A stretch of DNA of 64,000 nucleotides from Nitrososphaeraceae archaeon (GTDB lineage Archaea > Thermoproteota > Nitrososphaeria > Nitrososphaerales > Nitrososphaeraceae), in NCBI GenBank assembly GCA_044870765.1, contig JBIOZG010000012.1, positions 108,093 to 172,092 of the forward strand. Reading direction: 5' to 3'. The notes under the pieces were generated by a model. It did not search any database. It was not told the DNA's origin and was given only the letters and a program-made list of their open reading frames with translations. Made by a program: the position numbers and the translations under genes. Every line of letters starts with the position of its first letter. Within the stretch, counting starts at the first letter, position 1. Below, in pieces: positions 2,645-64,000 of the stretch.

Positions 2645-2648
2645 GCAT

Positions 2649-4279: not shown

Positions 4280-5050
4280 ATGAACATTAATGAATTCTTA
4301 TCAACTCTGCCAAACTCGGTTATTGCAGGAAACAATGTCAGCTTACCAGATAATGTTATTAAAAGAATGCTAAGACTTGCGAGCCTAAACAAAAATGATG
4401 TTTTTTATGATCTTGGTTGTGGAAATAGTAATGCTGTCTACATTGCCTCCACTCACTACAAAGTGAAAAAGGCAATAGGTATCGAAAAGAGAAAAAAATC
4501 AGTAATTGAACTAATTAAGAAAACTCGAGATTTAGGAAACGTTAAAGTCATGGTCGATGACATAAGAAGAGTGGATATCTCTGACGGTAATGTGTTCCTT
4601 TTTTGGTTTCACAATGATACTGTCATAAAAAAGATGATACAAAAATTTTCTACAGAGTTAAAAAAAGGCAGCAGAATAATTTCGATTTGGTCCCCCCCAG
4701 ATATGATTTTACCGGACAAAGTTGATTTCCCATTTTTTGTATCTCGTACACCATTCAGGTTCGCAAATAGTATAGAAGAACAAATCAAGGCAATCTACGG
4801 TCAAAAATGTCTCGATTTTACCGCAGCATGGTTGTTGGGAGATAAATACCTGGAAAGTTTGGAAGTTGTTCCAGCTCGGTATAAACGATTTCTGAATATC
4901 CTATATTCGATGATAATCTGGATAAATGCTTGGAATATGAAAGTATCATGTGAAGATGAGATTCCACCTCCTGTCGATTCGTATTTAGGAATACTTCGTA
5001 CATTTTTCAGCCTAGACTTGAGTTCATTAATTCAAAATAAAGATAAGTGA
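4280..5050 (+). CDS. Class I SAM-dependent methyltransferase
   Basis: VFYDLGCG motif I, AIGIE motif II. Confidence 0.8.
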   Translation: MNINEFLSTLPNSVIAGNNVSLPDNVIKRMLRLASLNKNDVFYDLGCGNSNAVYIASTHYKVKKAIGIEKRKKSVIELIKKTRDLGNVKVMVDDIRRVDISDGNVFLFWFHNDTVIKKMIQKFSTELKKGSRIISIWSPPDMILPDKVDFPFFVSRTPFRFANSIEEQIKAIYGQKCLDFTAAWLLGDKYLESLEVVPARYKRFLNILYSMIIWINAWNMKVSCEDEIPPPVDSYLGILRTFFSLDLSSLIQNKDK

Positions 5051-5105
5051 TAACTGAAGACACGTTATGCAGTCATTTATTATGTAGTCATTTTTTAATA
5101 TTTCG

Positions 5106-6071
5106 TTACCTGCCAACCCAACCCAATCTTTTGAAATACCAAACCATTACCAGTGAAGGGATTATTGCAATCAAAAGTAAAATTATGAATGAAGTATATG
5201 GACCAAGAAAAACTGGACTTCCTGTGATAAGACCGCCTGGAAGATTAACATTCATACCATAGTAAGCCCCAACTACTGTTGCAGGTATGGAAAGTGTGAA
5301 TAGGATAGTAAGAGTTGCTAAAATCTTGTTTGATTTTTCCGTACTTAACATGAAATCTGTATCTTTGAAAATTTCTATAGTTTCTTTTGATTCCTCAAGA
5401 ACTTCAAGAACCTTTTCGGTATGATCCTTAACATCATCATAATAATCGGTCAAATCTTCCTCCGAAAATCTTTGCATCTCTTTGCTCAACTCCAATATTA
5501 CTCTTCTTAAGGGAACAACTACTCTTCGGAGAGTCGTTATCTCTCTTCGCAATAAAGAAATATCTTTTGCTACTGCGACTTTCTCATCAAATACGAGATC
5601 CTCAATATCATCCAGATTTCCTTCGAGCTTCATTAATACATGTAATAGATCATCGACCATAAGATCTATAATGCTATGTAATAGATACCCTGATGAAGAA
5701 CCCATGAAGGTTTCCTTCTGCCTTTCATTTTCCTTGCAAAGGTTGAACATTTCAGTGATTGGTTTTAGTTCGCCTTGCTGTACGGTAATGAGATAGTTAG
5801 GTCCCGCAAAGATTGCAAGCTGAGTTGAACGTGGAATACTCTTATCCTTATCCACAGTCGGGAAGTGTAAAATTACAAAAATTTGATCCTGATACCTGTC
5901 TATTTTTGGTATTTGTATTTTCGAAAGACAATCCTCAATATTTAGTTCGTGGAAAGGGTATTTACCTTCCAGCATTTTTAATTTTTTTCTAGTGGGTTTT
6001 TGAATATCTATCCATACCAGACTCTTATTAGTAATTGATTCAAGTTGACTAGAATATTCAATATTGGTCAT
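5106..6071 (-). CDS. corA: CorA Mg2+/Co2+ transporter
   Basis: YYGMN signature between two C-terminal TMs; FHEL.IED, PKID. Confidence 0.93.
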   Translation of the reverse strand: MTNIEYSSQLESITNKSLVWIDIQKPTRKKLKMLEGKYPFHELNIEDCLSKIQIPKIDRYQDQIFVILHFPTVDKDKSIPRSTQLAIFAGPNYLITVQQGELKPITEMFNLCKENERQKETFMGSSSGYLLHSIIDLMVDDLLHVLMKLEGNLDDIEDLVFDEKVAVAKDISLLRREITTLRRVVVPLRRVILELSKEMQRFSEEDLTDYYDDVKDHTEKVLEVLEESKETIEIFKDTDFMLSTEKSNKILATLTILFTLSIPATVVGAYYGMNVNLPGGLITGSPVFLGPYTSFIILLLIAIIPSLVMVWYFKRLGWVGR

Positions 6072-6166
6072 CTGGCCTCATTCTTGGTTAACTTTAAAGT
6101 TGAAATATTGTATATTAAGATATCTGATTAATTTCGCGATTTCGACAAATTAGGTTAAAATAATGC

Positions 6167-6493
6167 ATGATAATGCATGTTTATATGGCAAAAGTAGTTG
6201 TCGGAAAAACTGAAGATATTCAAGAAGGAAAATTGGAGCATATAACGGCTGGTGGAAAAGAAATAATGGTAACGAAATTGGATGGAAATTATTACGCAAT
6301 TGATAATATTTGTACTCACGCAGGAGCAGAACTTCATGAAGGTGAATTAAAAAACAATGAATTAACGTGTCCGTGGCATGGAGCAAAATGGGATGTCAAG
6401 ACTGGAGCATTAATCTCATTTCCACAAAAATTAAAACCACTACAAAGTCACAAAGTCTTGGTAGAAAATGATACCTTGTATGTTGAAACATAA
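6167..6493 (+). CDS. Rieske [2Fe-2S] ferredoxin (likely start ATG 6185)
   Basis: CTH...CPWH motifs. Confidence 0.92.
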   Translation: MIMHVYMAKVVVGKTEDIQEGKLEHITAGGKEIMVTKLDGNYYAIDNICTHAGAELHEGELKNNELTCPWHGAKWDVKTGALISFPQKLKPLQSHKVLVENDTLYVET

Positions 6494-6983
6494 ACTTCAA
6501 CAGTAGAAGTAGCAAGTTACTATTATTTTTTAGCGAATTAACTAATGTGTAAGTAACAAAATTGATTGATCCTTTACTAAATTGGAATACAGTAGTATTT
6601 TTAAATTAGTGATTTTTAACAGATTCAATTTATCGTATTTTTCATAATTGTTCCGTTTTGAAGAACATTATTAATTTGCCATCAGACAATCTTTTTTCGA
6701 ACACTGAAAGCTGTAATTTGATGAAATTCTAAATAATTGTACGACGAGTACTGATTTTAACCAAATTTACCAAATTTACGGAACTTACAAACGCACAATT
6801 TCTAAAGAAAGTTTAATGACCATAGTAGGCAATCTACACATATGGTGACTTTTACCTCGTATTTCCAAATATTCTTACCGGTTCGATGTAGCGCTTGTCA
6901 ATTTAGTTTGATTATAATATTTGCAGATAAAATTATTGATTTATATAGAATTGCAATAAATATGGCATAACTGAATTAAAGAT

Positions 6984-8174
6984 ATGAAGCTTGATGTCCC
7001 GAGATTCACAGAAAGATTCGGATCAGTAAGTCTACATGGAGTGCAACGTGTATACGAACTGGATTCTGGACACAAGAACAAGCATCCAAAGACCGAATCT
7101 GAAGTAATTCGCTCTATTGATGATGAAATAATATCTAAAATTGAATCTGAAATGGCGATTGTCATTCCTATAAAAGGAGAACGTTTAAAGCTCTTAGAAG
7201 GAGTACTAAGCGGCATCCCCCATGATTGCTTAACAATAATTGTATCTAATAGTCCTAGAGAACCGATTGACAGGTACAAACTAGAAAAACAGGCAATTGA
7301 GCAATTTAATAGATTCGCGGAAAAAAAATCAGTTATCATACATCAGAAAGATACGGGTCTTGTAAAGGCTTTAGAAGAAGTCGGCTATACTGATCTTTTT
7401 GACTCCGAAAATAAGATACGTAACGGAAAAGGAGAGGGGATGTTTATTGGCATGCTCCTTTCAAAAATGATGGGAAAAAAATACGTTGGATTCGTAGATT
7501 CTGACAACTATGTCCCTGGTGCGGTCAACGAATATACAAAAATATTTTCTTCTGGTATTGCGTTATCAACCACACCATACACAATGGTTCGTGTATCTTG
7601 GATATACAAGCCAAAGATTTCGGAGTCTGGTGTACGATTTTCCAAGCTTGGACGAGTTTCTGAAATGACGAATCAATTTCTAAATTTCATGATATCGTAT
7701 TACACTGGTTTTGAAACAGAAGTTATTAGAACAGGAAATTCTGGAGAACATTGCATGTCTATTCAACTAGCAGAGCTATTGACTTACTCGTCCGGTTTTT
7801 CGATAGAACCTTATGAAATAGTTAATTTATTGGAACAATTTGGTGGAATAACGCCTCCTGAACATAAGGATACCATGGAGAAAGGAGTAGAGGTTATGCA
7901 AATCGAAACACGCAATCCACATTTTCATGAAGAAAAGGGGGACCTGCATATAAAAGAGATGTTCTTACAAGGGTGGGGCAGTATTTTTCATAGCAAGTTA
8001 TGTCATCCAGAGCTTCGTGAAAAATTAAAGGCTGAGTTAATTTCAAGAGGAATATTAGAGAAAGTAAAAGAACCTCCACAATTACATAAAATGAGACCGT
8101 TCAAGGATATGGACATTCTGAAATTCGAAAAAATTTTGAAGGAACAATCCAATTCTCTTACAATTTTTGAATAA
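6984..8174 (+). CDS. mpgS: Mannosyl-3-phosphoglycerate synthase (GT55)
   Basis: ERFGSV, GVLSGIPHDC, RNGKGEGM, GFVDSDNY, GNSGEH, ETRNPHFHE. Confidence 0.92.
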   Translation: MKLDVPRFTERFGSVSLHGVQRVYELDSGHKNKHPKTESEVIRSIDDEIISKIESEMAIVIPIKGERLKLLEGVLSGIPHDCLTIIVSNSPREPIDRYKLEKQAIEQFNRFAEKKSVIIHQKDTGLVKALEEVGYTDLFDSENKIRNGKGEGMFIGMLLSKMMGKKYVGFVDSDNYVPGAVNEYTKIFSSGIALSTTPYTMVRVSWIYKPKISESGVRFSKLGRVSEMTNQFLNFMISYYTGFETEVIRTGNSGEHCMSIQLAELLTYSSGFSIEPYEIVNLLEQFGGITPPEHKDTMEKGVEVMQIETRNPHFHEEKGDLHIKEMFLQGWGSIFHSKLCHPELREKLKAELISRGILEKVKEPPQLHKMRPFKDMDILKFEKILKEQSNSLTIFE

Positions 8175-8232
8175 TTTTTGCCGATGATTTTTCCAGTGTT
8201 TTGACGAGAACATTTCCGTAAACTAGCAAAGT

Positions 8233-9066
8233 CTATTTGTTACCAATGATATCGCACGCTTCCTTGTTTACTATTTTACGTATTATCAAGAGCGGAGTCC
8301 CTAACAAAATCGGAATGCTTATTGCTATGAATAAACTTTGAAAAGGTGCTAATCCAGAGATAGCGGCACTTGTACCGAACCCTATTAGGAATGAAAATAG
8401 ACTACCTGCACAAGTAGGACAACCGATGAATAATCCACTGAATATGCCAAAAGTCGAAACGGCTGAGAATTTTCTTTGAGCCTGATACCTAAACATCCTA
8501 AGAAAGTGTAAATTTAGTGCAAAATTAAAGCCAACCATTGACGATACAGATATTGCGAGTATCAGATTCAGAGGGATTATCAATATCGAAAATGAGTCAC
8601 TCAGCAATAATGTTATCATCGGAACATAGCCAGGATAATTACAACAAACTGTGATAGAAATAGATGGAACAACATCACCTTCAATATCTTCATGATAGAT
8701 GAGAATTTGAGACAAGAAACCAAAGAAAATCCCGTAAACAACAGAAGAAATAACAAAAATTCTCCAGTAAGTCTTGTCTGTCAAAATCCTAGAAATGTAT
8801 GCAAGATAGCTCTTATTTGATTCGGACTTTATGGATTCAGAATGAAGTGCCAAATGTAATCCATAACCAATGGCAATTAACGAAACCAATATCAAGAAAA
8901 TATCGGCGATAGCCAAGTTGTATAGTCTTGAAACGTCCGCTGACGATTGATTTGAACTTAATAATGAGTATATTGAGATAGCGAAAATTATTGAAAATAC
9001 GCCGATTGTAATAATTCGAAAGCCTCTATTGTGAAGCAACTGGTAATTATCGAGCATGGCAAACAA
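8233..9066 (-). CDS. Multi-pass membrane protein with CC and CPTC motifs
   Basis: About 6 hydrophobic segments; VCCNYPG and GCPTCAGS. Confidence 0.7.
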   Translation of the reverse strand: MFAMLDNYQLLHNRGFRIITIGVFSIIFAISIYSLLSSNQSSADVSRLYNLAIADIFLILVSLIAIGYGLHLALHSESIKSESNKSYLAYISRILTDKTYWRIFVISSVVYGIFFGFLSQILIYHEDIEGDVVPSISITVCCNYPGYVPMITLLLSDSFSILIIPLNLILAISVSSMVGFNFALNLHFLRMFRYQAQRKFSAVSTFGIFSGLFIGCPTCAGSLFSFLIGFGTSAAISGLAPFQSLFIAISIPILLGTPLLIIRKIVNKEACDIIGNK

Positions 9067-9173
9067 CCAAGTGTAAATTAAGTTATCAAAAGGAATCCAA
9101 TCTATATTAAGTTAATTCAAACCAAGATTAGGTTTTGGATAAAGTCTAAATTTACCGCCGTATAAAAAAAGAC

Positions 9174-9599
9174 ATGGACGAAACTTTCACAAGTGATGGT
9201 TTTATTACAGCGTCGATAAGCTTTGTTGGTTTCGTTGATAAACTCGGCCTTGAAGGACTTTTGACTTTGAAATCAGATGATGGAAGAGAATTTCCAATAC
9301 GTGCGTTTTCAGGAGAAGTCGCAAGGCATATTCTAAGATTTAAAGAAGGAGACAAGAGTACTATACCCACAATCTATAACCTTATTGAAGATATATCATC
9401 CCTTCAGGATCTATTACTGATAGAGATAAGAATATACAGAAACGGTCCTGTTTTAAGATCTAATCTTTATTTCAAAACTCGTAAGGAGGTAATCACATTA
9501 AGAAATTACCGTGCGTCAGATTCTATAGCATTAGCTGCATTTTTTGATGTACCAATAAAAGTAAGAAAAAATCTGTTTGAAGAAACTATCGAACAGTAA
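9174..9599 (+). CDS. Bifunctional nuclease-like (DUF151) protein
   Basis: LKSDDGREFPI, PTIYNL, RASDSIALA. Confidence 0.75.
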   Translation: MDETFTSDGFITASISFVGFVDKLGLEGLLTLKSDDGREFPIRAFSGEVARHILRFKEGDKSTIPTIYNLIEDISSLQDLLLIEIRIYRNGPVLRSNLYFKTRKEVITLRNYRASDSIALAAFFDVPIKVRKNLFEETIEQ

Positions 9600-9608
9600 A
9601 TTGCTAAA

Positions 9609-10706
9609 TTAAGTAACTATTCTTGACAGCATGTTAGAGGCTAATGCCTCTTTAACTTCCATCGCGATCCTGCGGCCAATGCCAAATGTGTAGCCATGAG
9701 AATATTTGGTATAGGGCGATGTAGTTGCCATGATTGGGTTTCCAGGAACTCTGAGAGACACATCATATACGACTATCTCTAGTTCTGGTGTGACAATACT
9801 CTGTAAGGAAAAAGGTCCAATAATTCCGGGAGGATATTCCTTTCTCACAGCGGCTGTAAATTTATCGCCAAGCTCAAAGACCTTTTCTAGCATAGATTCC
9901 CTTATACTTGCAGGAGTATGGCCTATTTCAATATGTTTTACTTCTGTATCAAATTCCAATTGTTGCCTTGCAGGTATAGCATTCAGATCATTAAGATTAG
10001 TCTGAAGCCTTCTCTCAATGCCTAAGAATTCGGTTTCGGGAGTCAAGGGGGAGGAGAAAAAATTAAAATTAAAATATGTTCCAAGGACAAACTCTTCTAT
10101 TACAGAATTTTCGAGATCTTCGCTAGTGATAATTTTTTCACTTTTTTTCTTTTGAGATTTTGCCCTGTAGTCTTGAATTGAACTGACTATGAAAAAGGCC
10201 CTTTCCAGCTTTCTCGTGGATTCTTGAATTTTTACAATGGCGAGTTTGTCAATTTCGGTGTAATTTTTATAAATCTTTGGGTGAGCTATTTGAGCTTGTT
10301 CCAATAACAAGTACTGATTCTTAACATAATTTCTTTCTTCTGCGCGAAATAATAGTCTATTTCCAAGTATTGGCAACAATAGATCGTTTTCAATTGAGTC
10401 ATAACCAAGATAGGCTGTGAACGCCCTATGTGGTACTATAATACTATTCAATTCCCTGAGTTTATCTTGATTTTCTTTGAAAACCATGTCCGAAAATTTA
10501 TCTACCAAAATTATTTTGTCTGCTAACCTCTTGAATCTCACATATGGTAATTCCCTTCCTTTCTGACAAATGCAAACCGTTCTCAATCCTTCGTCCTTTG
10601 CACCATCCATTATTTCTAGTGCAGAATGACTACCGATTACTGCCATGTGTATATTCTTCAGATCATACTTCTCTATAACGTCAGATATCGCATCAGGATG
10701 AATCAT
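9609..10706 (-). CDS. purP: Formate--phosphoribosylaminoimidazolecarboxamide ligase family (ATP-grasp)
   Basis: IGSHSALEIMDGAKDEG, GHTPASIRES, GIIGPFSLQ, DVSLRVPG. Confidence 0.9.
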   Translation of the reverse strand: MIHPDAISDVIEKYDLKNIHMAVIGSHSALEIMDGAKDEGLRTVCICQKGRELPYVRFKRLADKIILVDKFSDMVFKENQDKLRELNSIIVPHRAFTAYLGYDSIENDLLLPILGNRLLFRAEERNYVKNQYLLLEQAQIAHPKIYKNYTEIDKLAIVKIQESTRKLERAFFIVSSIQDYRAKSQKKKSEKIITSEDLENSVIEEFVLGTYFNFNFFSSPLTPETEFLGIERRLQTNLNDLNAIPARQQLEFDTEVKHIEIGHTPASIRESMLEKVFELGDKFTAAVRKEYPPGIIGPFSLQSIVTPELEIVVYDVSLRVPGNPIMATTSPYTKYSHGYTFGIGRRIAMEVKEALASNMLSRIVT

Positions 10707-10801
10707 GTTTATGCAAGCAGAAGATTATGTTATAATTAAAATTTTCCAACAAAAGTCAACTAATATTTAATCACTTATTATTGAATGGCGTAAGGCGAGG
10801 A

Positions 10802-11119
10802 TTAACTTTTTTCCTTATTAACAGCACCTTCGATTGCCTTCCTAAGATCATCATCATTCTTATTTGTATAGTCTATTCCTAACGATTCTGCTATCTCTTC
10901 GAGTTTTTCTCGTCCGACCTTATCTTTTCCCCGAATTTGCTCCAGTTCTTTTTTAGCTTCAATTCTTGCCTTTTCATATTCCGCTGTTGCCTTTCCAAAA
11001 GACCTTGCTAATTCAGGAATTTTCTTGACACCGAAAAACAAAACTACGATAATAACTATGATTATTAGAAATTCATATCCAGTTGGCATTTGCAAAATAG
11101 CGTTATGGATACCATACAT
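10802..11119 (-). CDS. tatA: Twin-arginine translocase TatA/E subunit
   Basis: TM followed by FFGVKKIPELARSFGKA. Confidence 0.9.
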   Translation of the reverse strand: MYGIHNAILQMPTGYEFLIIIVIIVVLFFGVKKIPELARSFGKATAEYEKARIEAKKELEQIRGKDKVGREKLEEIAESLGIDYTNKNDDDLRKAIEGAVNKEKS

Positions 11120-11606
11120 AAGTACAAGGTAGACATGGTTGAGATTTAAATGTTGATGGTATTTTTTTAATCGCTCATATAATTATTACATCGATCATTT
11201 CCATTAATTCCCCAAAATACCTAAACTGCGAAGGGCAATTACAAGAATCATAATTACCTTAACTCGATCGAATCTGTTTGCGAGTATTATTATTACATCA
11301 TTTTTAGGGTGTTCGATGGGACACCAGGTTATTACTTGATTTCTTACCTGAAGAATATGATAAAAAACAAGCAAGTCAGGTGATCGTATTATTAATTGAA
11401 TTGGATTTATAGCATGAGTTACCCATTCCTTGATACCTCAAATACAAACTCGTTATAGTTACTATGTAATTCATAATGAATAAAAAATCCATTGATACTT
11501 GTTATAAAACATTTTAATAGAATTTACGATCATTGACATTTGTTAGTAGAATAAATAAAATGATTCAACTTTTATGGATATAACCGACTGCTTTACATAA
11601 TGATTC

Positions 11607-54568: not shown

Positions 54569-55372
54569 TTGAATGGTAACAAAACTAAAAAGTTAGGTTC
54601 TGATTTTGAAAAAAAGTATTGGATACTTAGATATTCAATATTCGTCGGCAGGATTGCAGAAGTACCTGTTTACATAAATTTTAGTTTTGCTTTTGTATTT
54701 ATTCTCATTACATTGTCACTTTCTATTACGATTTTACCAAACCTTAATCCTGGTTTAGTACAATCAAACTATGTAATTGCAGGAGTAGTATGTGCATTTA
54801 TATCACTTTTTTCCATTTTGTTTCACGAAGTCGCACATTCAGTTATAGCAAAAAAATACGGAATCAAATTTCAAAAGATTATTCTATTTGCCTTTGGAGG
54901 AATTGCATTGCAACCTATTGAATTAATTGATCCTAAAAAGGAAATTTATATGGCATTTGCTGGTCCCCTAATAAGTTTCATTACTTCTTGTCTTTCCTTC
55001 CTAATTTGGTTTGAGTTGCATCAGAGTAGTATTCTAATTATACAAGGTTATCCTATATCTAGTATCGTTTTCTATAGTGCAATGATTAATCTCGTCATTG
55101 GACTTTTCAACCTTTTACCCGTATTCCCAAGTGATGGGGGAAGAATATTGAGGTCATTTTTGTCCTACCGCACTCACGATCAATTCAAGGCTACTATAAA
55201 CGCCATAAAAATTGGGTGGATTCTTTCTATTAGTATTCTTATAATTGGGGCAGCGGTCGGCTTGAAGCTATCTCCAATAGGTGGTGTCTGGTTAATGCTT
55301 GTGGCCTTGTTCTTGATGAGAGCATCCAAATCATACTATAACTTGTATCAAACCATGCGTCCTAGTAATTAA
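54569..55372 (+). CDS. Site-2 protease (M50, SpoIVFB-like)
   Basis: FHEVAHS, FAFGG, AGP, FNLLPVFPSDGGR. Confidence 0.9.
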   Translation: MNGNKTKKLGSDFEKKYWILRYSIFVGRIAEVPVYINFSFAFVFILITLSLSITILPNLNPGLVQSNYVIAGVVCAFISLFSILFHEVAHSVIAKKYGIKFQKIILFAFGGIALQPIELIDPKKEIYMAFAGPLISFITSCLSFLIWFELHQSSILIIQGYPISSIVFYSAMINLVIGLFNLLPVFPSDGGRILRSFLSYRTHDQFKATINAIKIGWILSISILIIGAAVGLKLSPIGGVWLMLVALFLMRASKSYYNLYQTMRPSN

Positions 55373-55580
55373 TCAAGTAATGAAAATAGTACCAACAATA
55401 TCGGGGCCCTGAAAAAATGAACTTAAATTTTAGGTGATCGACATTAGAATTTAGATCAAGTAATTGCACCTAATTTTGCTAAAATTGTGAACCCGAGGCA
55501 TTGACATACACATTGTTCATCTAGATAAGAAATAATTAAAACATCTCAATTTGAAATTCTACTCAGTTTTGCAAGTTATG

Positions 55581-55745
55581 CTATTTCGTAAATCTATGTT
55601 GCTTCATAAACTCGTCCAGACATTCGTTGCAAAGTCTAAAACCTTCTTTCTCAAACACAATTTCTTTTTTCTCATCGCAGGAATTACATCTCGAATCTTT
55701 GTTTCCTGCTTGGACTTCACTATCCTTGGTTACCTTAGCGTCCAC
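55581..55745 (-). CDS. Unannotated 54-aa zinc-finger protein
   Basis: GTG start; ...SRCNSCDEKKEIVFEKEGFRLCNECLDEFMKQHRFTK*. Confidence 0.55.
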   Translation of the reverse strand: MDAKVTKDSEVQAGNKDSRCNSCDEKKEIVFEKEGFRLCNECLDEFMKQHRFTK

Positions 55746-55820
55746 TCTAACAATATGAGTTACTGCACCTTTTAAAAAGATTGATTGATATTTTGTTTCG
55801 AAGAATTCATTGAATAACGC

Positions 55821-55979
55821 TCATTTTAATTTTTTTCTCAGTGCAAGATCTTTCTTTTTTTCTATTTCTTTCCATTTTCGTATTATTTCATCCCAATTAC
55901 TTATTTCTCCTTCTGATTGCTTTATAGCCTCTAGAATATAATTCGCAAATTCTTCAATGTCATGTTCGATATCATCCAT
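55821..55979 (-). CDS. Unannotated 52-aa helical protein
   Basis: MDDIEHDIEEFANYILEAIKQSEGEISNWDEIIRKWKE...; GGAGAGGT upstream. Confidence 0.45.
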   Translation of the reverse strand: MDDIEHDIEEFANYILEAIKQSEGEISNWDEIIRKWKEIEKKKDLALRKKLK

Positions 55980-56149
55980 CTCCCTATTCAATTACCTCTC
56001 CGCTATTATCCTAATCTTGCCTAATAAAGTAAATTCTACCATTTAGAACTTCCTTTGCTTGTCGATTCTGGGTTTATTCCTACTACTGCTAATTGTAACA
56101 TTGTTACACCTAATTGTAACGCGAATTATTTTCTTAATTCTTCAAAGAC

Positions 56150-56243
56150 TGAAAATTGAGGTCAAAATATGGTGGGCCGGAGGGATTTAATTTGATTAGA
56201 ATGTGAATCCTTGTACGAGTACTGCTTAGTGGGCCGGAAGGGA
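56150..56243 (-). repeat. tRNA-3'-end-like att repeat, copy A (two cores)
   Basis: TGGTGGGCCGGAGGGATT (56170) and GTGGGCCGGAAGGGA (56229); reverse complement reads AATCCCT(T)CCGGCCCACCA. Confidence 0.75.
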
Positions 56244-56300
56244 CTATTCTGAAATTATGTAAGGTAATGTGAGATCACTTCAGTACTAGAGGACGAGTAC

Positions 56301-56825
56301 CTAACTAAGATTGACTTTTGTAATGTAATATTTTACATAATCATTAAAGTAGGCCACCAAAACAAGCATGTACTCTGTTGGTTGTTTTCTGTAGGGGAAT
56401 TCCCCATAGAACGTATGACAACCCTCATCAGTACTATTGAAATTACATTCCAAATTTATTAGGTGATGTTGATTGTTAAATCCAATCGTGCCATTTTCAT
56501 AATTTACCATTATTCTATGTTCCTTAATCAAGAAGGCATCAAAATCTAATATTGAATCCTGATCGGGAGAATTAAAAACTCCACGAATTGGAGTGCGTCT
56601 ACTTGCGTTTACTACGTCTTCTTCTGCACTCTGGTTTTTGATTATTTGATTATTCTTTGGTAAAACAGTGTAATCGAGTGCAAATGAGTATGATTTGCCC
56701 AAAGTCTCAACGGTGGCGAAATCGATAGTGGTTTTATTATTTAATGCATAAGTCTGTGTCGATCCACTTTCTACACCGATAATTATAAGGATGGGAATTA
56801 ACACGACGGATAAAATAAGTCTCAT
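56301..56825 (-). CDS. Secreted hypothetical protein
   Basis: Signal peptide ending TYA. Confidence 0.65.
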   Translation of the reverse strand: MRLILSVVLIPILIIIGVESGSTQTYALNNKTTIDFATVETLGKSYSFALDYTVLPKNNQIIKNQSAEEDVVNASRRTPIRGVFNSPDQDSILDFDAFLIKEHRIMVNYENGTIGFNNQHHLINLECNFNSTDEGCHTFYGEFPYRKQPTEYMLVLVAYFNDYVKYYITKVNLS

Positions 56826-56975
56826 TTCTTTTTCGTCAATTAAATGCCTTTACACTTACCCTAATATTATATATTACAAACATTATGCCATATGACTCTC
56901 AAAAGTAAAAGATATACAAATATCTAATTATGTGTAAAAACCTAACCACCCGCAATTCTTGTGTCTTTGTCTTTC

Positions 56976-58625
56976 TTAATAATTCGCATGAATCTCAATT
57001 CTGGTTACGGGATTGGGGGTCAAACTAGTCAAACTATTAAATGGATATTTGTTCTTCTGAAGTGTATTTGATTGATTGTCTCTTATCTCATACAGTAAAA
57101 CCGACTTGGTTAGTAATTGTCTTAATTTCTCTTTGCTATGTTTATCAGTAGTCATCTCAGGGATAAAGTCTTCGTCGACCACTAAAATGACCTTTTTTGT
57201 CATGTTGTCTTCGGCGTTGTAATAGTTTCTAAATTCATTGACACCATCTCTATCGAATATGTACTTTGGAATCCAAAGCCAATAGTTATTCCCAAGAACG
57301 GTTACTCCATTCTTGTTTATGTTTCCTCTACTATCATGGCTTATAGATGTGGTATTTGCATTTTGAATCTGATATGCGATATCGGATATAACCTGGTAGT
57401 GAAATGACGTGAGATTGAGTGTGATGAGCATAATCGTGACAATGAATCCATAGGTCCCAATTACTACCATGAATGCATAAGGTAACATTATCCGAATCTT
57501 TTTGTTAGGTAACAGTTTAGAAATATCTTTAATTAATATCGCAGAACCTATACAAAATGCAGGTAATAGTGGTATGAAATGCCAATATGATACATATCCG
57601 CTAATAAGGCTAAAGAGGATGAACGGTATAAACCATAATATAATAAATAAATCCCTTTTCTTCACTACTGCATACAGAGTGCCAACAAGTGCAAGAGATA
57701 CTAGAACTGGATCTATGGCAAATAACTTTCCAATTGCGCCAGTAATTAGCTTATCTCCTCTCTCTGATTGCCACAACAGACCGTCAATCCATTGATCATA
57801 TTGCCCATTCAATATTGCAAAAAGTGGCCACAATAGAGGTATCAATAATACAGGAAGAAGCCAAGTACCAACTAATTTCCAATTCTTAGAGTTGGAATAA
57901 ATAACATATATACCCAAAGGAATTAGCGTGAAAATTGGAAGCTTTGTGAATATTGTTAAACCAAAAAGTATTCCAGACACTGTTCCTAAAATAGAAACTA
58001 TTCTCCCTTTTGATTCGTAATTCTTTAAGTACATTGCTACAAGTATCGAAGCAAGTAGAAAAGGCAGTTGAATAGGTTCTAGCCATATTCTTCTAATGAT
58101 CCATGTAAGTGGCATTACTGCAAAAAGAACAGAAGCAATAGCAGCGGTTGTGGTTCCATAGCGACGTTCAGTTATCATAAATAAGAAAAAGGTATCTAGT
58201 ATTGCGAGCATTCCCATTAGCATCCTTGGAACCAAGTAGATTTCTTTAATTGAGGAGGGTTCTATCGATGGATTAATCGAATCTGGATAACCAATTCCAC
58301 CTAATATTGCCGCAAGAAACAGCTGTCCAAAGTAAGGATGAGTATAAGGATGCGATGGGTTACTCAACAGTTCATCAGATTTTTCCTGTGGGCCCAGACC
58401 GCTTAGAAGATGCAATGTTTTCCTAAGATAATGGTCTTCATCCCTATAGATACTTGGAAATCCGTCTATATTCCATAGATGAGTAAAAGCAGAAAGTCCA
58501 ATTGGGACAAGTAATAATACAAATCTAAAACTTGGTCGATGGATATATCTAGCCACGAATTGTATCAAAGAATCTATAAGGATTCGACCAGTATAAAACC
58601 TGTAACATTCAGTGTAAAATGACAC
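56976..58625 (-). CDS. GT-C fold glycosyltransferase (ArnT/PMT, GT39/83-like)
   Basis: RDEDHY, HPYFG, about 11 TMs, FTK.P. Confidence 0.82.
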   Translation of the reverse strand: MSFYTECYRFYTGRILIDSLIQFVARYIHRPSFRFVLLLVPIGLSAFTHLWNIDGFPSIYRDEDHYLRKTLHLLSGLGPQEKSDELLSNPSHPYTHPYFGQLFLAAILGGIGYPDSINPSIEPSSIKEIYLVPRMLMGMLAILDTFFLFMITERRYGTTTAAIASVLFAVMPLTWIIRRIWLEPIQLPFLLASILVAMYLKNYESKGRIVSILGTVSGILFGLTIFTKLPIFTLIPLGIYVIYSNSKNWKLVGTWLLPVLLIPLLWPLFAILNGQYDQWIDGLLWQSERGDKLITGAIGKLFAIDPVLVSLALVGTLYAVVKKRDLFIILWFIPFILFSLISGYVSYWHFIPLLPAFCIGSAILIKDISKLLPNKKIRIMLPYAFMVVIGTYGFIVTIMLITLNLTSFHYQVISDIAYQIQNANTTSISHDSRGNINKNGVTVLGNNYWLWIPKYIFDRDGVNEFRNYYNAEDNMTKKVILVVDEDFIPEMTTDKHSKEKLRQLLTKSVLLYEIRDNQSNTLQKNKYPFNSLTSLTPNPVTRIEIHANY

Positions 58626-58674
58626 TGATGTATAAATTAAGTCATTATCTACAAGCTATTTTACAAGATTGAAC

Positions 58675-60312
58675 TTAACTATCTTCTGACAGTATTGTTT
58701 CATTTTCAAAATCTGTTAGGTCCATCTCACTATCATTTTTAATAGGATTACTTTTGATAACTAGGGGATTCTTTGTACCTTTCACTTCATTTGATATATT
58801 TGCCTGATCTAAAAAGTATGCATTAGAATTACTATTGATTGAATCATTACTGTTTGATGCATGTGTAAATACGATTCCATTAATAGAATTGTAAATTTTA
58901 TTATTAATTATTTTATTGGTAATGTCCTGAACTATTAATGCCTCTTGTGCCCCAATTATCTTATTGTCAGATACTATATTATTTGAAGTATCAGTGAGAT
59001 CTATCCCTATATTACAATTTGAAAGAGTGTTGTTATATATCTTGTTATAATCTGACAATCTGTTTAATCCTATGCATATATCTTGATCGTGAACATAATT
59101 ATTTTGTACTATTGAATGATCTGAATTAATGCTGTACGCAATACCGCGATGACCATCCATATTATTATAAACCTCGTTTTCCTCAATTAATATGTTATAA
59201 CAATCCTTTGAACATACTACAGCCGTTGCATTATTATGATGGACCTTGTTACTGCGTATTATCATATCATGTGTTCCGGTATGTGGATCTATCCCATATA
59301 GATAATTCTCATGGAAATTATTATTCTCAACAATCATATATCCCATTTTTTTGGAATAAAATCCCTTTAAGAGATGGTGAATATCATTTCCCATTATAAC
59401 AGAGCCAATCCCTCCATAATAACTTAAGCCCGAGCACTTGCTGCATGAATAACCAAGGTAAGCTAACTCAGAATTGGTGATATTAGTAGTTCCGGATGCT
59501 TTATCGGATACTCTTATGAAGGGCCTAGGCTCAACAGTATCATATTCTGATTTAGTGTCTTCCTCTCCAGGTCTTTTACCTAGACTAAATTTAACAACAT
59601 CATTTTTCTTTAGATCCCATGAAGTTATTTTTACAGAATCTATTATCAGCGAGCCAAGTACGTGAATTCCATTCGGATTATTATTATTATTCTTACTTGT
59701 CACTATCATATTTCTGACTTCTTCGTTACTACTTTTGTTCTCATTATCAATAAAGTTAACTACTTTACCATTCTGATTACTGTCAACAGAGACCGTTGTT
59801 AAATTACTCTCCAAAGAAATTTGATCATTTTGTTCTTGCTCTTTTGTAGTTTTTGATTCTGATGATAACTGTACAGTATCTACTGGAACTATCTTTAGCC
59901 AACCGGTATCGATAGAATCTATTATAAGGGTAGCATTCTTACCAACAGTAATTCCCGCGTTTAATAACCATCCCTTGTTTTGCTTAATACTACCTGTAGA
60001 ACTAAATTCATCAGAATCAGAATTAAAACTTTCTCTTTTTAAAATACTTGAATTGTTTAATTGCTTATCAATATCAGAAAGTCTTGCTGATGTGCAGAAA
60101 ATAGAAATTAATCGTGTTTTAGAGTCAAATTTTATACACGAATCATCACTACCATAAACTTTCTCAAAAAAACCTACCATTGATCCAACTACATATAAAT
60201 TAACATAAATAACGAAAGTTACCATTAAAAGGAGCGTAATTGGATGCAATAATCTTGATTTTATATAATTATTCCAAGTATATTCTTTTCGATGTGTATC
60301 AGGGAAATACAT
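58675..60312 (-). CDS. Membrane-anchored right-handed beta-helix protein (NosD/AlgG-like)
   Basis: N-terminal TM; Asn-ladder repeats; NSELAYLGY and YGIDPH motifs. Confidence 0.8.
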   Translation of the reverse strand: MYFPDTHRKEYTWNNYIKSRLLHPITLLLMVTFVIYVNLYVVGSMVGFFEKVYGSDDSCIKFDSKTRLISIFCTSARLSDIDKQLNNSSILKRESFNSDSDEFSSTGSIKQNKGWLLNAGITVGKNATLIIDSIDTGWLKIVPVDTVQLSSESKTTKEQEQNDQISLESNLTTVSVDSNQNGKVVNFIDNENKSSNEEVRNMIVTSKNNNNNPNGIHVLGSLIIDSVKITSWDLKKNDVVKFSLGKRPGEEDTKSEYDTVEPRPFIRVSDKASGTTNITNSELAYLGYSCSKCSGLSYYGGIGSVIMGNDIHHLLKGFYSKKMGYMIVENNNFHENYLYGIDPHTGTHDMIIRSNKVHHNNATAVVCSKDCYNILIEENEVYNNMDGHRGIAYSINSDHSIVQNNYVHDQDICIGLNRLSDYNKIYNNTLSNCNIGIDLTDTSNNIVSDNKIIGAQEALIVQDITNKIINNKIYNSINGIVFTHASNSNDSINSNSNAYFLDQANISNEVKGTKNPLVIKSNPIKNDSEMDLTDFENETILSEDS

Positions 60313-60330
60313 AGTATCAATATCTATTTT

Positions 60331-60394
60331 TGAAATTTGCTCATGATTTCAGGTGCGCTGGAAGGGATTGAATTTGTTTACAGTGTGGGTCTTT
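60331..60394 (-). repeat. tRNA-3'-end-like att repeat, copy B
   Basis: TGAAATTTGCTCA...GGTGCGCTGGAAGGGATTGAATTTGTTTACAGTGTGGGTC aligns with copies A, C and D. Confidence 0.6.
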
Positions 60395-60472
60395 ATTTAC
60401 ATTGTTAGGACCTAGTTGCAGGTTTCTCACTCTGTTAGTTTTTAGTTACTACAACCTATAAATAAAACGCGT

Positions 60473-60892
60473 ATGTATACAAGAACAATGACTCAAAACC
60501 AAGGTTACGTTGAGGTAGGAAAAGTAAGCGAAATTACTAATGGTCAAATGAAACATCTAGACATAAATGGAAAAGAAATAGTAATAGCCAATTTTTATGG
60601 AAAGTTTTATGCTTTTGACGAAAGATGTGGACATATGAATGCCAGACTTTCAAATGGGAATATAAATCAAAATATAGTAACGTGCCCTTTCCATGCGGCA
60701 AAGTTTGATATTACCACGGGAAAGAAAGTAGGAGAACCGGTTTTAGAAATACCTCCTGATATGGAACCCCTACCTCCAAAGTGGCAAAAATATATGGAAA
60801 ATGTTGGTAAAGAGATGTCATTTATTAAAACATATGACCAGAATACATATGAAGTTACCATTGAAGGAGATATTATAAGTATCAAAACATGA
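60473..60892 (+). CDS. Rieske [2Fe-2S] ferredoxin with Pro-rich insertion
   Basis: CGH...CPFH. Confidence 0.9.
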   Translation: MYTRTMTQNQGYVEVGKVSEITNGQMKHLDINGKEIVIANFYGKFYAFDERCGHMNARLSNGNINQNIVTCPFHAAKFDITTGKKVGEPVLEIPPDMEPLPPKWQKYMENVGKEMSFIKTYDQNTYEVTIEGDIISIKT

Positions 60893-60930
60893 CAGTTATT
60901 TTTTTATTTACATAGTCAGAATATTAAGTG

Positions 60931-60993
60931 TGAAAATTTGCTCAAAATATGGTGAGCGGAGAGAGATTTAATTTGTTAACAATGTGAGTCGTT
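60931..60993 (-). repeat. tRNA-3'-end-like att repeat, copy C
   Basis: TGAAAATTTGCTCAAAATATGGTGAGCGGAGAGAGATTTAATTTGTTAACAATGTGAGTC. Confidence 0.65.
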
Positions 60994-61206
60994 ATCAGAA
61001 GTTGTTTTTTTCAGTTACTATTTACCTTTCACGCAGATGGATGGAATAACATTTTTACATCTATGCACTTTTCAACGATATCTAATTTTATTTCGCTAGT
61101 CATTTTAGAGGTGGCCACTGAAATATCCGTCTGAAAATAGTTTCAATTAATGTTATAAATAAATCTCTTCATCTTAAAATGAGAACTGTCGTTATTTTAC
61201 CCGATT

Positions 61207-61548
61207 ATGATCAAAACCTTCTTTAACGTAAATATCATATCATTGTTAGTGTCAGAAGGTTATTACGATACAGGCTCTATTGACGGTTTTCTACAAGAAT
61301 TGGATAGAGAGAAAGCCAAGGTGGTCATCGCGAAAGAATTTAGGAAATTTAAGAAACCAACAACAGTCATAAAAGGCCTTGAGAGTATGACTGATGTTGC
61401 TTCAATAACTAAAGAATTGAAAATCAAACTTGGAGCAGGAGGTACCTATAAAAATGGATTAGTCATTTTGCAGGGTGATCATAGAAGTGCAGCCAAGGAC
61501 TTTCTCATTACAAAAGGAATTAAGGAAGACCTAATAGAAGTCAGATAA
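61207..61548 (+). CDS. sui1: Translation initiation factor SUI1/aIF1 (likely start GTG about 61249)
   Basis: RKFKKPTTVIKGL...KELKIKLGAGGTYK...LQGDHR. Confidence 0.88.
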   Translation: MIKTFFNVNIISLLVSEGYYDTGSIDGFLQELDREKAKVVIAKEFRKFKKPTTVIKGLESMTDVASITKELKIKLGAGGTYKNGLVILQGDHRSAAKDFLITKGIKEDLIEVR

Positions 61549-61811
61549 TGTCAAATTTTTGTTTTTATCTTCAATTCTTTGTTTCTGGAAATTTATGAAT
61601 TTGATTAGATATGATTGAATTGAATCATTATTTTTCTTTGTAAATTCATATGGTTTGGTACATTTTTCTTCAATGGTTCCCTCAAAACCCATGAACACCA
61701 AGAATTGCCCTCTAGCTCCATTAAATAAATAAAACTTAATTATATTCAATCCCTGTTTAAATGGCTACATGAAGCAGTGTCCAAGTTTAGATAGAGAGGC
61801 TGCAGGCGAAC

Positions 61812-62225
61812 GTGGTTGCTAACAAGAAAATTGTTAGTGTAGTAGATGACGATCTAAACACTACTGAGCTCTTTCATATTGCTTTGTCTGAAAATATTGA
61901 TGGCATTTCTGTTGTTTCTTTTAATGATCCTATCATTGCTCTAGAACACTTTGCCGCTAACAAAGATGCCTACGTCTTGGTAATTGCTGATTTGAGAATG
62001 CCTAATCTTAATGGATTAGAGCTACTGAAAAAGGTAAAGAGCTCAAATCCTAAGGTGAGGACAATATTGATGAGCGCCTATAACTTCGATGAGGATTTAT
62101 TATTCCTAAAATATATGGAAGAAGGAATAATAGATTCATCAATTGACAAACCTGTTACCATGAACAGGTTATACCAAAGGGTACTGGAACAACTGAATGC
62201 ATACGAAAAAACGGAAAGTCGTTAA
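61812..62225 (+). CDS. Stand-alone response-regulator receiver protein (paralog of 25321-25785)
   Basis: VVDDD, ADLRMPNLNG, MSAY, KP. Confidence 0.9.
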   Translation: MVANKKIVSVVDDDLNTTELFHIALSENIDGISVVSFNDPIIALEHFAANKDAYVLVIADLRMPNLNGLELLKKVKSSNPKVRTILMSAYNFDEDLLFLKYMEEGIIDSSIDKPVTMNRLYQRVLEQLNAYEKTESR

Positions 62226-62438
62226 GTGAACTGTGAGGAATGATTCTGTTTTTTTGGACGCGACATCTCGAGTGTTTCTGAATTATTCTGCATGGCCTGC
62301 GGTATTCACAATCCAGATATACGGCGCAGAAGCCATGTCCTGATTCTACTTTGTAAATTTAAAATCTCAAAATAAAGATATAACTTCTGTTATCGTATGG
62401 TTTTAGGAAGAGAACTTTTTGAAGAACGCTCATTGAAA

Positions 62439-62532
62439 CGGAAGGGATTGATATTGTTTACAATGTGAATTCTTGTACGAGTACTAAGTTTAGTGGGCCG
62501 GAAGGGATGGATGTGGAATTTCAGATGGGTCC
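62439..62532 (-). repeat. tRNA-3'-end-like att repeat, copy D (two cores)
   Basis: CGGAAGGGATT...CAATGTGAATTCTTGTACGAGTACT...TTAGTGGGCCGGAAGGGATGGATGTGGAATTTCAGATGGGTCC. Confidence 0.75.
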
Positions 62533-62601
62533 TAGTTGGAATATCTAAATTGCCTAATCCCTATTTGATCAAACGGTTAAAAATTTCTAAAATCCAGATT
62601 C

Positions 62602-62829
62602 TCAAGGGTAAGGCTGATTTTTCGTTTCAGGCAGCTCATAGGTGCTGTAATAATCCTCAAAGGTTGCCTTTACAATTTTAAATGCCAGACCTTCTTCATA
62701 CGGTCCCTTGGATATAGCTTTCAGAATACCCCGCTGAACTGATTTTAGTCTTTTCTTATCCAACATTATGTCTTGTGGAATATCGATCTTTAATTCCATT
62801 TTTAATAATATCCCTTTAGTCTTAACCAA
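62602..62829 (-). CDS. Hypothetical protein
   Basis: 75-aa ORF between repeat copies D and E. Confidence 0.5.
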   Translation of the reverse strand: MVKTKGILLKMELKIDIPQDIMLDKKRLKSVQRGILKAISKGPYEEGLAFKIVKATFEDYYSTYELPETKNQPYP

Positions 62830-63285
62830 TAATTAAATAATAAAATTGATATTTAAAAAGATGGATCTAATTTCTTTGATAATATAAGCACCGAATACGA
62901 ATCTTGTTCAGAAAAGGATTAGAGAGTAAAAAGCTGGTGAACGAGCTTCTTGCAGTCCCGAAATAAGCGCGAAAAGTGAGGCAAAAATCACAATAGAAGC
63001 TGCTCATCTTCTCCAAGACGACTAAAGTTTTTTGTCCAAAACACTTTATACAAAAGGGAACAACCTAGGTAGTATAACCATACTCCGGGAGAAATTGTAT
63101 TAAATAAAGTCTATCTAAAGCTGTGAATATCGAGTACTACCCGACCAAAAATAATATTTTTCCTAAAAATTAACTCATATAACGTGTAGCTGTTAGATGT
63201 AGACTTCAGCATACATATTGATGTGATTAGAGCGAGGATTTTTATCAACTGGTGCTATAATGTCAAGGTTGGATCTGTGATTTTG

Positions 63286-63430
63286 GCTAAAAGTCGTCAT
63301 AAAGTAATCCCTGATAAGCATTGGTAGTAACTAAAGTCGTCATAAACAGATGCGTTTATAGCTAAAAGTCGTCATAAAGTAATCCCTGATAAGCATTGGT
63401 AGTAACTAAAGTCGTCATAAACAGATGCGT
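63286..63430. repeat. Perfect 70-bp tandem duplication (75-bp period) with four internal 14-mers
   Basis: 63286-63355 is identical to 63361-63430; AAAGTCGTCATAAA at 63290, 63333, 63365, 63408. Confidence 0.9.
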
Positions 63431-63478
63431 CTATTAATTTATAATTGCCATAATTGCGATCAGATATACTAATTCACT

Positions 63479-63529
63479 CTCAAAATACGGTGGGCAGGGA
63501 GGGATGAATCTGGAATTTCAGATGGGTCC
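63479..63529 (-). repeat. tRNA-3'-end-like att repeat, copy E
   Basis: CTCAAAATACGGTGGGCAGGGAGGGATGAATCTGGAATTTCAGATGGGTCC. Confidence 0.7.
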
Positions 63530-63607
63530 AAATTATAATTTCATTTTTATGTAGAACTTTAACAGGATCTGAGACTGGACATTATTATGTTTACATCAAT
63601 CGTAGAC

Positions 63608-64000
63608 TTAGGGCTCTTGCCTTGTTTGATTAGTTACCGGCGCTCCTGTTTGATTATCTACAAGTCCATCTGTTTGATTGTCCATGGGTGGTATTCCTCC
63701 AGGTGGTATTCCTCCAGGTGGTATTCCACCTCCACTTGTTTGATTGTCTGTGGCCCCACTTGTTTGATTGTCTAGGGGCGGTATTCCTCCTCCACCTGTT
63801 TGTTCATCTCCAGGCGGCATTCCTCCTCCACCTGTTTGTTCATCTCCAGGCGGTATTCCTCCTCCAGGTATTCCTCCAGGCGGTATTCCTCCTCCACCTG
63901 TTTGTTCATCTCCAGGCGGTATTCCTCCTCCAGGTATTCCTCCTCCTGGAAGAGTTCCACCATAAGTCAAGGAATCTTCGGAAGGTGTAAATGTTAAACT
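63608..64000 (-). CDS. C-terminus of a Gly/Pro-rich repeat protein (5' end beyond window)
   Basis: Frame open to window edge; GGGIPPG(G/DEQT) and DNQT repeats. Confidence 0.65.
   Translation of the reverse strand, partial: SLTFTPSEDSLTYGGTLPGGGIPGGGIPPGDEQTGGGGIPPGGIPGGGIPPGDEQTGGGGMPPGDEQTGGGGIPPLDNQTSGATDNQTSGGGIPPGGIPPGGIPPMDNQTDGLVDNQTGAPVTNQTRQEP

Follow-up and report, generated by a model that had tools for sequence, protein, structure and literature searches.

The final 64 kb of contig C12 (JBIOZG010000012.1, positions 108,093 to 172,092) in the genome of an uncultured soil ammonia-oxidising archaeon of the family Nitrososphaeraceae (GCA_044870765.1), a stretch of 64,000 nucleotides that we refer to as the window, ends in a tandem array of direct repeats, each of which joins a short core derived from the 3' end of a tRNA-Val(GAC) gene to a conserved arm. 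This repeat-delimited array at the contig end is a real feature of the sequence; it occupies the last 8.6 kb of the window and runs on past the end of the assembly, with nothing assembled beyond position 64000. In our best reading, what is present here is the tRNA-distal portion of a tandem array that grew through repeated events of conservative site-specific recombination at the tRNA-Val(GAC) 3' end, and we consider it likely that such arrays arise by serial site-specific accretion, at tRNA genes, of small cassettes that carry no integrase. The source genome (G000), which comprises 2.0 Mb in 59 contigs with 96.7% completeness and 36% G+C, was compared within a genus set of 40 genomes of uncultured Nitrososphaeraceae. 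The genus tallies given below take in two unpublished genomes (G029 and G030), and the values obtained when these are left out are given alongside; no claim depends on either of them alone.

An earlier note, made from the letters of this stretch, had reported seven cores in the same orientation, and all seven are present on the + strand where it had placed them. A 19-mer consensus with up to 3 mismatches gave four + strand matches (at 56170, 56227, 60351 and 62491), against 0 matches in 100 shuffles, and the more diverged copies at 60950, 62439 (partial) and 63489 were recovered by a repeat search, nhmmer profiles and covariance models run with filters off. Across the 64-kb window, matches to the covariance models R1 and R2 at E ≤ 0.06 were confined to 56164-56256, 60346-60400, 60944-61000, 62432-62551 and 63482-63549, all on the + strand, and the same unfiltered models detected no significant further copy in the first 55 kb. 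A further copy, the eighth, is degenerate and lies at 55398-55452; the orthologous place in the relative G005 (position 50 onwards of locus L012) scores 20 bits. This copy is probably the left-most junction of the array that can still be recognised. The junctions are as follows, where X and Y are the two arm types described below and identities refer to the tRNA-Val gene and trailer of the relative G025.

55398-55452, + strand: degenerate Y-type copy (eighth junction), R1 E = 0.24, borderline; directly after an M50 peptidase gene
56157-56223, + strand: junction 1, trailer CAAAATA, CCA complement, tRNA-Val core and X arm; R2 match at 56164-56219, E = 1.9e-13; 30/33 identities to the tRNA-Val 3' end plus trailer (56157-56188)
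56226-56256, + strand: junction 2, tRNA-Val core and truncated Y-like arm; E = 4.8e-6; 15/15 identities (56229-56243)
60338-60400, + strand: junction 3, diverged core (GTGCGCTGG) and X arm; E = 6.2e-15
60939-61000, + strand: junction 4, trailer, CCA complement, diverged core and X arm; E = 6e-14; 28/32 identities (60939-60969)
62432-62480, + strand: junction 5, partial core (CGGAAGGGATT) and X arm; E = 3.6e-14
62486-62551, + strand: junction 6, tRNA-Val core and full Y arm; E = 5.7e-19
63479-63549, + strand: junction 7, trailer, core and full Y arm; E = 7.7e-20; 32/40 identities (63479-63515)

Short direct repeats (TAATTGTAAC / ATAATTGC) were also noted at 56090-56125 and 63445-63470, 50-80 nt to the left of two of the cores, and these may be arm-type binding sites of a left arm.

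The core is the reverse complement of the 3' end of tRNA-Val(GAC), spanning the T-loop/T-stem to the discriminator base, with the CCA also present in some copies. An exact pattern of 22 nt, consisting of the core and the T-loop, was found in the tRNA-Val(GAC) genes of many relatives within the genus (the pattern occurs in 36 of the 38 published genomes), and ARAGORN calls these matches tRNA-Val(GAC), ending ...GGGTTCAAATCCCTTCCGGCCCA. In two relatives (G025 and G038) this gene is followed by a CCA-TATTTTGAG trailer, which is the exact reverse complement of CTCAAAATATGG, the sequence that precedes three of the cores in the window. The tRNA origin of the repeats is proven, and of the two guesses offered in the earlier note (Val- or Ile-like) the source is Val(GAC). 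Within the own assembly the sole real tRNA that resembles the core is a tRNA-Ile(GAU) on contig C38, with one mismatch. Split or permuted tRNA genes, and tRNA genes with an intron in the T-loop, were considered as the source of the units and rejected, as neither the 5' strand of the T-stem nor the remainder of the tRNA is present in the units. A separate observation concerns contig C29 of the own genome, where a tRNA-like 3' end on the minus strand at ~7219, which is not called by ARAGORN, has its T-loop interrupted by ~29 nt; this interruption looks like a non-canonical T-loop intron.

The repeat extends beyond the core, each core being followed by a conserved arm, either X (~45 nt) or Y (~60 nt). 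In the window, X arms are located at 56181, 60363, 60962 and 62443, Y arms at 62493 and 63490, and a truncated Y arm at 56229. The consensus sequence of the X arm is GGAAGGGATTtAATTTGTTTACAATGTGAATCC and that of the Y arm GGAAGGGATGAATCTGGAATTTCAGATGGGTC..AATTAGAATTTCTA; both of them begin at GGAAGGGAT and hold a palindrome of ~16 bp. When 30 Y copies taken from a variety of contexts are aligned, 6 of the columns do not vary at all and 19 reach at least 90% conservation. Many copies elsewhere have the acceptor-stem part TGGGCC, on the left, swapped for other sequence, and because the arm stays intact in these copies the crossover is likely to lie at GGAAGGGAT or immediately to its left. A third arm family, Z (CgTCGGGATTnGAACCnTGCATGTAnTAGGGTTCTAcTA...TATTTAGCTTTTT), has the 3' part of tRNA-Glu(UUC) as its core; copies of it are found on contigs C43, C10, C52, C54, C33, C49, C4 and C24 of the own genome, some of them ~90-130 nt after a Y unit. 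All three arms are conserved in sequence, and each has a short internal palindrome. Two degenerate patterns, one for X and one for Y, gave no match among the viral contigs of IMG/VR.

Strongly conserved palindromes of this kind are typical of protein-binding sites, every copy is intergenic, and a TATA-like stretch comes after some of the Y copies, all of which would suit a cis-regulatory or small-RNA element (promoter or operator, terminator, small RNA) that is kept for gene expression. However, the copies bear no fixed relation to the direction of genes: they are found after stops, before starts and between convergent genes, and of the open reading frames (ORFs) within arrays 77 point in the same direction as the repeats and 83 in the opposite one. 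RNAalifold predicted no consensus structure for the 30 Y copies. Searches against Rfam returned tRNA-Met alone for the whole window at the gathering threshold, and three chance-level matches, none with E below 2, for 55300-64000 at E ≤ 5. A regulatory role would also leave the tRNA cores and the anchoring of the arrays at tRNA genes unexplained, and we regard this account as very improbable. Origin-recognition boxes and the ends of IS200/IS605-type elements were likewise rejected, as neither accounts for the duplicated tRNA cores or the anchoring.

Integration into the 3' end of a tRNA gene, if it is what produced the repeats as displaced copies, requires an array on the + strand to end rightward in a tRNA on the minus strand. 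The earlier note had predicted an intact tRNA in this sense at the array end, and this is what is seen in relatives, the window's own gene not being assembled. In the genome G010, a + strand array on contig C44, with Y at 366 and 966 and X at 4783 and 5422, ends 26 nt into a tRNA-Val at the contig end, and in G038 (contig C120) copies at 1965, 5976 and 6667 are followed by a tRNA-Val at c6769-6846. The mirror image is found in G021 (contig C87), where a + strand tRNA-Val at 456-530 is followed by minus-strand copies at 3098-7388, and the tRNA-Val arrangement is of the same mirror-image kind in G022 (contig C76). The tRNA-Val of G021:C87 (locus L026), with the array on its 3' side, has an aberrant 5' end, and the 5' strand of its acceptor stem appears to be displaced by a short insertion.

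Other tRNA genes serve in the same manner. Contig C43 of the own genome carries a tRNA-Glu(UUC) on the + strand at 64720-64818 and beyond it, at 67363-100732, five Z copies that are without exception on the minus strand. On contig C22 of G010 (loci L016/L075/L103) a tRNA-Glu(UUC) at ~52.7 kb is accompanied by a minus-strand array at 58-92 kb, in which the cores nearest to the tRNA are of the Glu type and a Val-type core is found at the far end. On contig C9 of the same genome (~168-198 kb) the cores are of an Arg type (CGGGCCCGGAGGGAT), and the contig end holds a tRNA-like gene with a matching 3' end, which by eye is intron-bearing and Arg-CCU-like and for which ARAGORN gave no clean call. One short contig start in G023 suggests that tRNA-Ile(GAU) is also used as an anchor. 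Cores of the Arg type also occur within the Val-type array of the window, namely the copy at 55398 and a loose end before 63498 in the metagenomic sample X19 (see below). Several genomes of the genus have a naive tRNA-Val, with no copies within ~10 kb.

The copies within arrays share one orientation. Among the genus-wide matches listed (150 for Y and 88 for X; 60 more Y matches fall outside this list), orientation is concordant on all 31 contigs with at least two listed Y matches (30/30 without the two unpublished genomes). The same holds for 40/40 sources with at least two X, Y or Z matches, comprising the own genome and the fetched loci (159 matches in total), these loci having been picked for containing repeats or tRNAs and not by orientation. 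Contig C22 of G010 carries in addition a single + strand copy at 654-715, 85 kb away from its minus-strand array. The Y arm was detected in 31/40 genomes of the genus, with up to 17 copies per genome, and the X arm in 24/40 (30/38 and 23/38, respectively, among the published genomes). In an even sample of the family, Y was present in 18/151 genomes (own included), of which 15, out of the 21 sampled, were other genomes of the genus, and just two belonged to other genera, one of these being 6% contaminated. The own genome has 29 X, Y or Z matches across 12 contigs, with isolated single copies on C36 and C16.

These results bear on the possibility, which the earlier note had put forward as an alternative, of a dispersed tRNA-derived repeat, i.e. 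a miniature transposable or dispersed element resembling miniature inverted-repeat transposable elements, short interspersed nuclear elements or repetitive extragenic palindromic sequences, situated between resident genes that were never mobile. The short length of the units (45-65 nt), their palindromes and the isolated single copies are all in keeping with such an element, as are orthologues of the array gene for SUI1 and of the families F36 and F58 that stand in normal synteny where the repeats are lacking. Yet the repeats are clustered, beside tRNA genes, and the window's first 55 kb are free of significant copies; orientation within arrays is 100% concordant; each array holds cores of the tRNA at which it is anchored (Val, Arg-like or Glu); the alignments of X and Y reveal neither terminal inverted repeats nor target-site duplications; and what a given pair of repeats encloses can differ by whole segments of several genes. 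The clustering and shared orientation contradict random dispersal, and we find this alternative very unlikely.

The segments that lie between the junctions of the window are as follows.

55551-55775, + strand: F7, an ORF of 74 aa with no Pfam family; found between repeats in G005 and G010
56301-60312, minus strand: cassette A, three genes, for proteins of 174, 549 and 545 aa
60473-60892, + strand: cassette B, Rieske [2Fe-2S] ferredoxin of 139 aa (PF00355, 1.2e-18)
61207-62225, + strand: cassette C, SUI1/eIF1 paralog (61207-61548) and receiver-only response regulator (61812-62225), both from Pfam
62602-63425, no single strand: cassette D, ORF of 75 aa (62602-62829, minus strand; 85% paralog on C49) and a tandem repeat, from ORF and repeat searches
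63608-64000, minus strand: beginning of a further cassette, with the gene for a Gly/Pro-rich repeat protein (motifs GGIPPG and DNQT/DEQT), which is truncated where the contig stops

Breakpoints in gene content between species and between samples coincide with the cores, as the earlier note would have it. F7, whose placement marks it as a separate cassette, precedes an X junction in four genomes, and the continuation differs. At two loci (L052 and L056) the order is F7-[X]-SUI1; in G005 it is F7-[X]-256aa-[X]-Rieske-[X]-SUI1; and in the own genome F7-[X]-three genes-[X]-Rieske-[X]-SUI1 and response regulator. Homology between the window and G005 breaks off at 56213 and resumes at 60316, 36 nt ahead of the core of junction 3, and this stretch of 36 nt recurs ahead of the next core. 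The slot of cassette A is occupied in G005 by a different cassette, of 1.15 kb, and in other relatives by none. Further evidence comes from Logan contigs of four soil or rhizosphere sequencing runs, from four studies, that were aligned to the region, such contigs showing presence and not rates or circles. In one independent sample (X19), a contig of 5.7 kb is missing precisely the 57 nt that separate core 1 from core 2 (joint 56171->56229), with 10 shared letters at the joint, and in a second contig position 56188, the end of core 1, is joined through 138 other letters to 61114, just upstream of SUI1. In the samples X5 and X10 the contigs with cassette A end at the flanking repeats, and the Y units at 62493 and 63489 lead into other sequence in other samples. 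A gap in X19 coverage at 62575-63447 carries no meaning.

The units carry no integrase of their own, as had been noted earlier: no match to the tyrosine integrase family PF00589 was found on the array contigs of the own genome or among 28 array proteins, which were scanned alongside two integrases from other contigs. Elsewhere in the own genome, PF00589 matches are located on C11, C59 and C29, with one resolvase (PF00239) on C5, and in the genus as a whole this family is present in 29 of the 38 published genomes. The integrases on C11 and C59 belong to a family of 350-390 aa, with 36-69% identity, whose members in relatives adjoin tRNA-Pro and tRNA-Leu; because they stand beside tRNAs without common flanking synteny, these proteins are taken to ride on ordinary mobile elements. 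None of this family was found with X, Y or Z arms, and scans for direct repeats around the intact integrases on C59 and C11 yielded no pair resembling attachment (att) sites. A weak Y-like stretch ~360 nt downstream of the C59 integrase (E = 0.019-0.45) was not used as evidence. Nor does the C11/C59 family have conserved synteny that would point to a domesticated integrase. Tyrosine integrases of ~350-390 aa beside other tRNAs are the obvious candidates for action in trans and nothing more. The earlier note had also raised relics of split integrase genes, of the type known from Sulfolobus spindle-shaped viruses (SSV); no sign of these was seen, the ORFs adjacent to cores having other Pfam families or none, in searches that did not include a dedicated SSV profile.

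These observations are relevant to an alternative in which the arrays are a fossil record: full-size, integrase-bearing elements would have integrated serially at tRNA-Val and then been eroded by deletion, which would leave the repeats as inactive att scars, with no movement at present. Thaumarchaeal and other elements are known, from one survey (PMC6563490), to form arrays by using a single tRNA site repeatedly, the cores at 60950, 62439 and 55398 are badly decayed, parts of the array have been inherited vertically at 93-97% identity, and no integrase is present. On the other hand, not one of the 159 X/Y/Z junctions, or of the 150 Y and 88 X matches listed, has an integrase on its contig, and the 28 array proteins scanned against Pfam include no recombinase, replication or virion gene, nor any other hallmark gene of mobile elements. 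The arms are far better conserved than their surroundings, in unrelated contexts and across species. In addition, the same slot holds different cassettes in close relatives, two arrangements occur in one soil sample, and the Val-type cores inside a Glu-anchored array point to exchange between arrays. A purely fossil origin is, in our judgement, unlikely.

Under the reading that we prefer, serial accretion at tRNA genes, each inserted unit would bring its own att site, made up of a left arm ending in the tRNA trailer, a core of 15-17 nt identical to the tRNA from its T-loop/T-stem up to and including the discriminator base, and an arm on the right, of type X or Y, which starts from GGAAGGGAT and contains the 16-bp palindrome. 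Integration would restore the tRNA and leave behind a displaced copy of core plus arm, and it is for this reason that a co-oriented pile-up of repeats with an intact tRNA at one end would be expected. The units are miniature (median spacing 1.3 kb), with ordinary accessory genes and no recombinase, so that they would have to be moved in trans, as cis-mobilizable elements or integron cassettes are. Excision between any two direct repeats, presumably through circular intermediates, followed by re-insertion at another repeat, would shuffle cassettes and preserve their co-orientation, and this process may continue at present. It is also quite possible, though less likely than not, that we are dealing with a dedicated, integron-like cassette platform, consisting of tRNA genes as insertion points (Val-GAC, Glu-UUC, Arg-like and probably Ile-GAU), X, Y and Z sites of 45-65 bp and a recombinase encoded elsewhere. 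This recombinase, possibly a protein outside PF00589, would move cassettes of one to three genes between arrays and between strains. In two respects that were tested, the term integron-like, used in the earlier note, does not apply: the ORFs lack polarity, and no IntI-type gene flanks any array.

A number of observations weigh against serial accretion. The first group concerns the enzyme: in the 40 genomes of the genus, no PF00589 match was found on contigs with listed X or Y matches, and two genomes, G021 (94% complete, 14 Y copies) and G037 (95%, 8 Y copies), have no PF00589 match anywhere. The second concerns activity, which the contig evidence cannot settle, since circles and rare excision are invisible in Logan contigs; the X19 variants may be separate strains, and homologous recombination between repeats of 45-65 nt could yield deletions. 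Thirdly, species of the genus that lack X and Y have the SUI1 paralog (63-80% identical) in conserved synteny, and several of its neighbours there (families F36, F58, F40, F127 and F164) are scattered across arrays in the repeat-bearing species. Because the paralog is found in ordinary synteny without X or Y, some cassette genes may be old residents that were bracketed and shuffled, and not imports. Lastly, tRNA-Val(GAC) is absent from the own assembly, as judged by ARAGORN with and without introns and by a pattern for the 5' half, and because of this the anchoring of the window's array is taken from relatives. A possible link of its far side to contig C15, which corresponds to the upstream flank of the relatives' tRNA-Val, was rejected as too weak, consisting only of a repeat-domain protein with 72-76% identity at the C15 end, and the arrays on C10, C52 and C54 have no tRNA on their assembled proximal side.

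Successive copies lie a median of 1330 nt apart (range 42-11237; n = 56). The cassette genes of the window have paralogs elsewhere in the genome. In cassette A, the 174-aa protein has a hydrophobic N-terminus that is signal-like by eye, and no Pfam match; the 549-aa membrane protein, which has a paralog on C43, also matches no Pfam family, so that the label GT-C (a glycosyltransferase class) given to it in the earlier note finds no support there; and the 545-aa protein, with two paralogs on C28, is a right-handed beta-helix, NosD-like protein. The labels proposed for the Rieske, SUI1, receiver and beta-helix proteins are all borne out by Pfam. The SUI1 protein of the array is 91-98% identical in the arrays of close relatives and 63-80% in species without arrays, and a second SUI1, 48% identical, is encoded at C28 41579-41830. 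Of nine loci at which SUI1 is 91-98% identical, eight have an X copy upstream (Y in L059), with other neighbours that vary, and the ninth (L057) begins ~300 nt before the gene. The tandem repeat of cassette D consists of 2 x 75 nt, 95% identical (63276-63425), between the two Y junctions. A gene end similar to that of the Gly/Pro-rich repeat protein is present at C13 1-195, and related large repeat proteins (family F3) recur beside repeats in other arrays. Cargo recognised by Pfam includes redox and metal functions (Rieske ferredoxin, multicopper oxidase, ZIP transporter and DtxR-type repressor), regulatory and stress proteins (receiver domains, histidine kinase and universal stress protein), enzymes (methyltransferase, luciferase-like monooxygenase and alpha/beta hydrolase), surface or repeat proteins (NosD-like beta-helix, NHL, RTX and Ig/PKD) and the SUI1 paralog.

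Little is known of the ways in which Nitrososphaeraceae, major nitrifiers of soil, gain accessory genes and rearrange them. In 30/38 published genomes of the genus the arrays mark out hypervariable loci, and among their cargo are multicopper oxidases, metal transporters and regulators, Rieske ferredoxins, two-component proteins and surface proteins. Because of the repeats, metagenome-assembled genomes of the genus break at these loci and lose tRNA-Val. Should the cassettes prove mobile in trans, they would represent a second integron-like route of gene capture, which is independent of IntI and has defined DNA sites that are directly testable. In the literature searched, no description of arrays of this type was found for Nitrososphaeraceae.

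Several known systems share some of these characteristics. In the SSV-type capture of Crenarchaeota, captured DNA is bordered by partial copies of a tRNA and the halves of the integrase gene lie beside the att copies, whereas the ORFs beside the cores described here are unrelated genes or there are none. The cis-mobilizable elements (CIMEs) of streptococcal integrative and conjugative, or integrative and mobilizable, elements (ICEs and IMEs) are considered to travel with a neighbour's integrase, or to be moved by it, and to build tandem arrays in this manner. The units of the present arrays resemble them in being bounded by att-type sites and in having no genes for integration or transfer. However, CIMEs are few per site and recognisably decayed relatives of the resident ICE, in contrast to the dozens of tiny units per genome found here. 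The integrated elements of thaumarchaea (PMC6563490) come from the same phylum, integrate at the 3'-distal part of tRNA genes with a short att (median 17 bp), and are mentioned to form arrays by site re-use; they are multigene elements defined by integrases and hallmark genes, whereas our arrays have neither of these and possess long conserved arms. Integrons and the clusters of attC sites lacking integron integrases (CALINs), including archaeal ones, similarly have co-oriented sites that separate accessory cassettes of one to a few genes, and according to one report (bioRxiv 10.1101/2022.02.06.479319) most arrays have no adjacent integrase and sites are more alike within a lineage; the words Thaumarchaeota and Nitrososphaer- are absent from the main text of that report. 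Unlike integrons, the arrays described here have no IntI or attI (a tRNA gene being in the place of attI), no attC-type fold and no polarity of cassette genes, and their sites bear a tRNA fragment. The closest described case is that of the tandem ssrA islands of Dehalococcoides (PMC3146451), where many co-oriented direct repeats of the tmRNA 3' end are found downstream of that gene. The two systems have in common conserved bases around the repeat, insertion in the T-loop region and accessory genes between repeats, which in Dehalococcoides are strain-specific, and some integrase-less units there are read as cis-mobilizable elements, a class mentioned in the same report. However, 16 islands of Dehalococcoides, and so most of the units there, have a serine-recombinase module, and their units are of the size of phage genomes, whereas the arrays of Nitrososphaeraceae are distinguished by an archaeal host, units without recombinase and with a median of 1.3 kb, several tRNA anchors (Val, Glu, Arg-like and probably Ile) and three families of arms.

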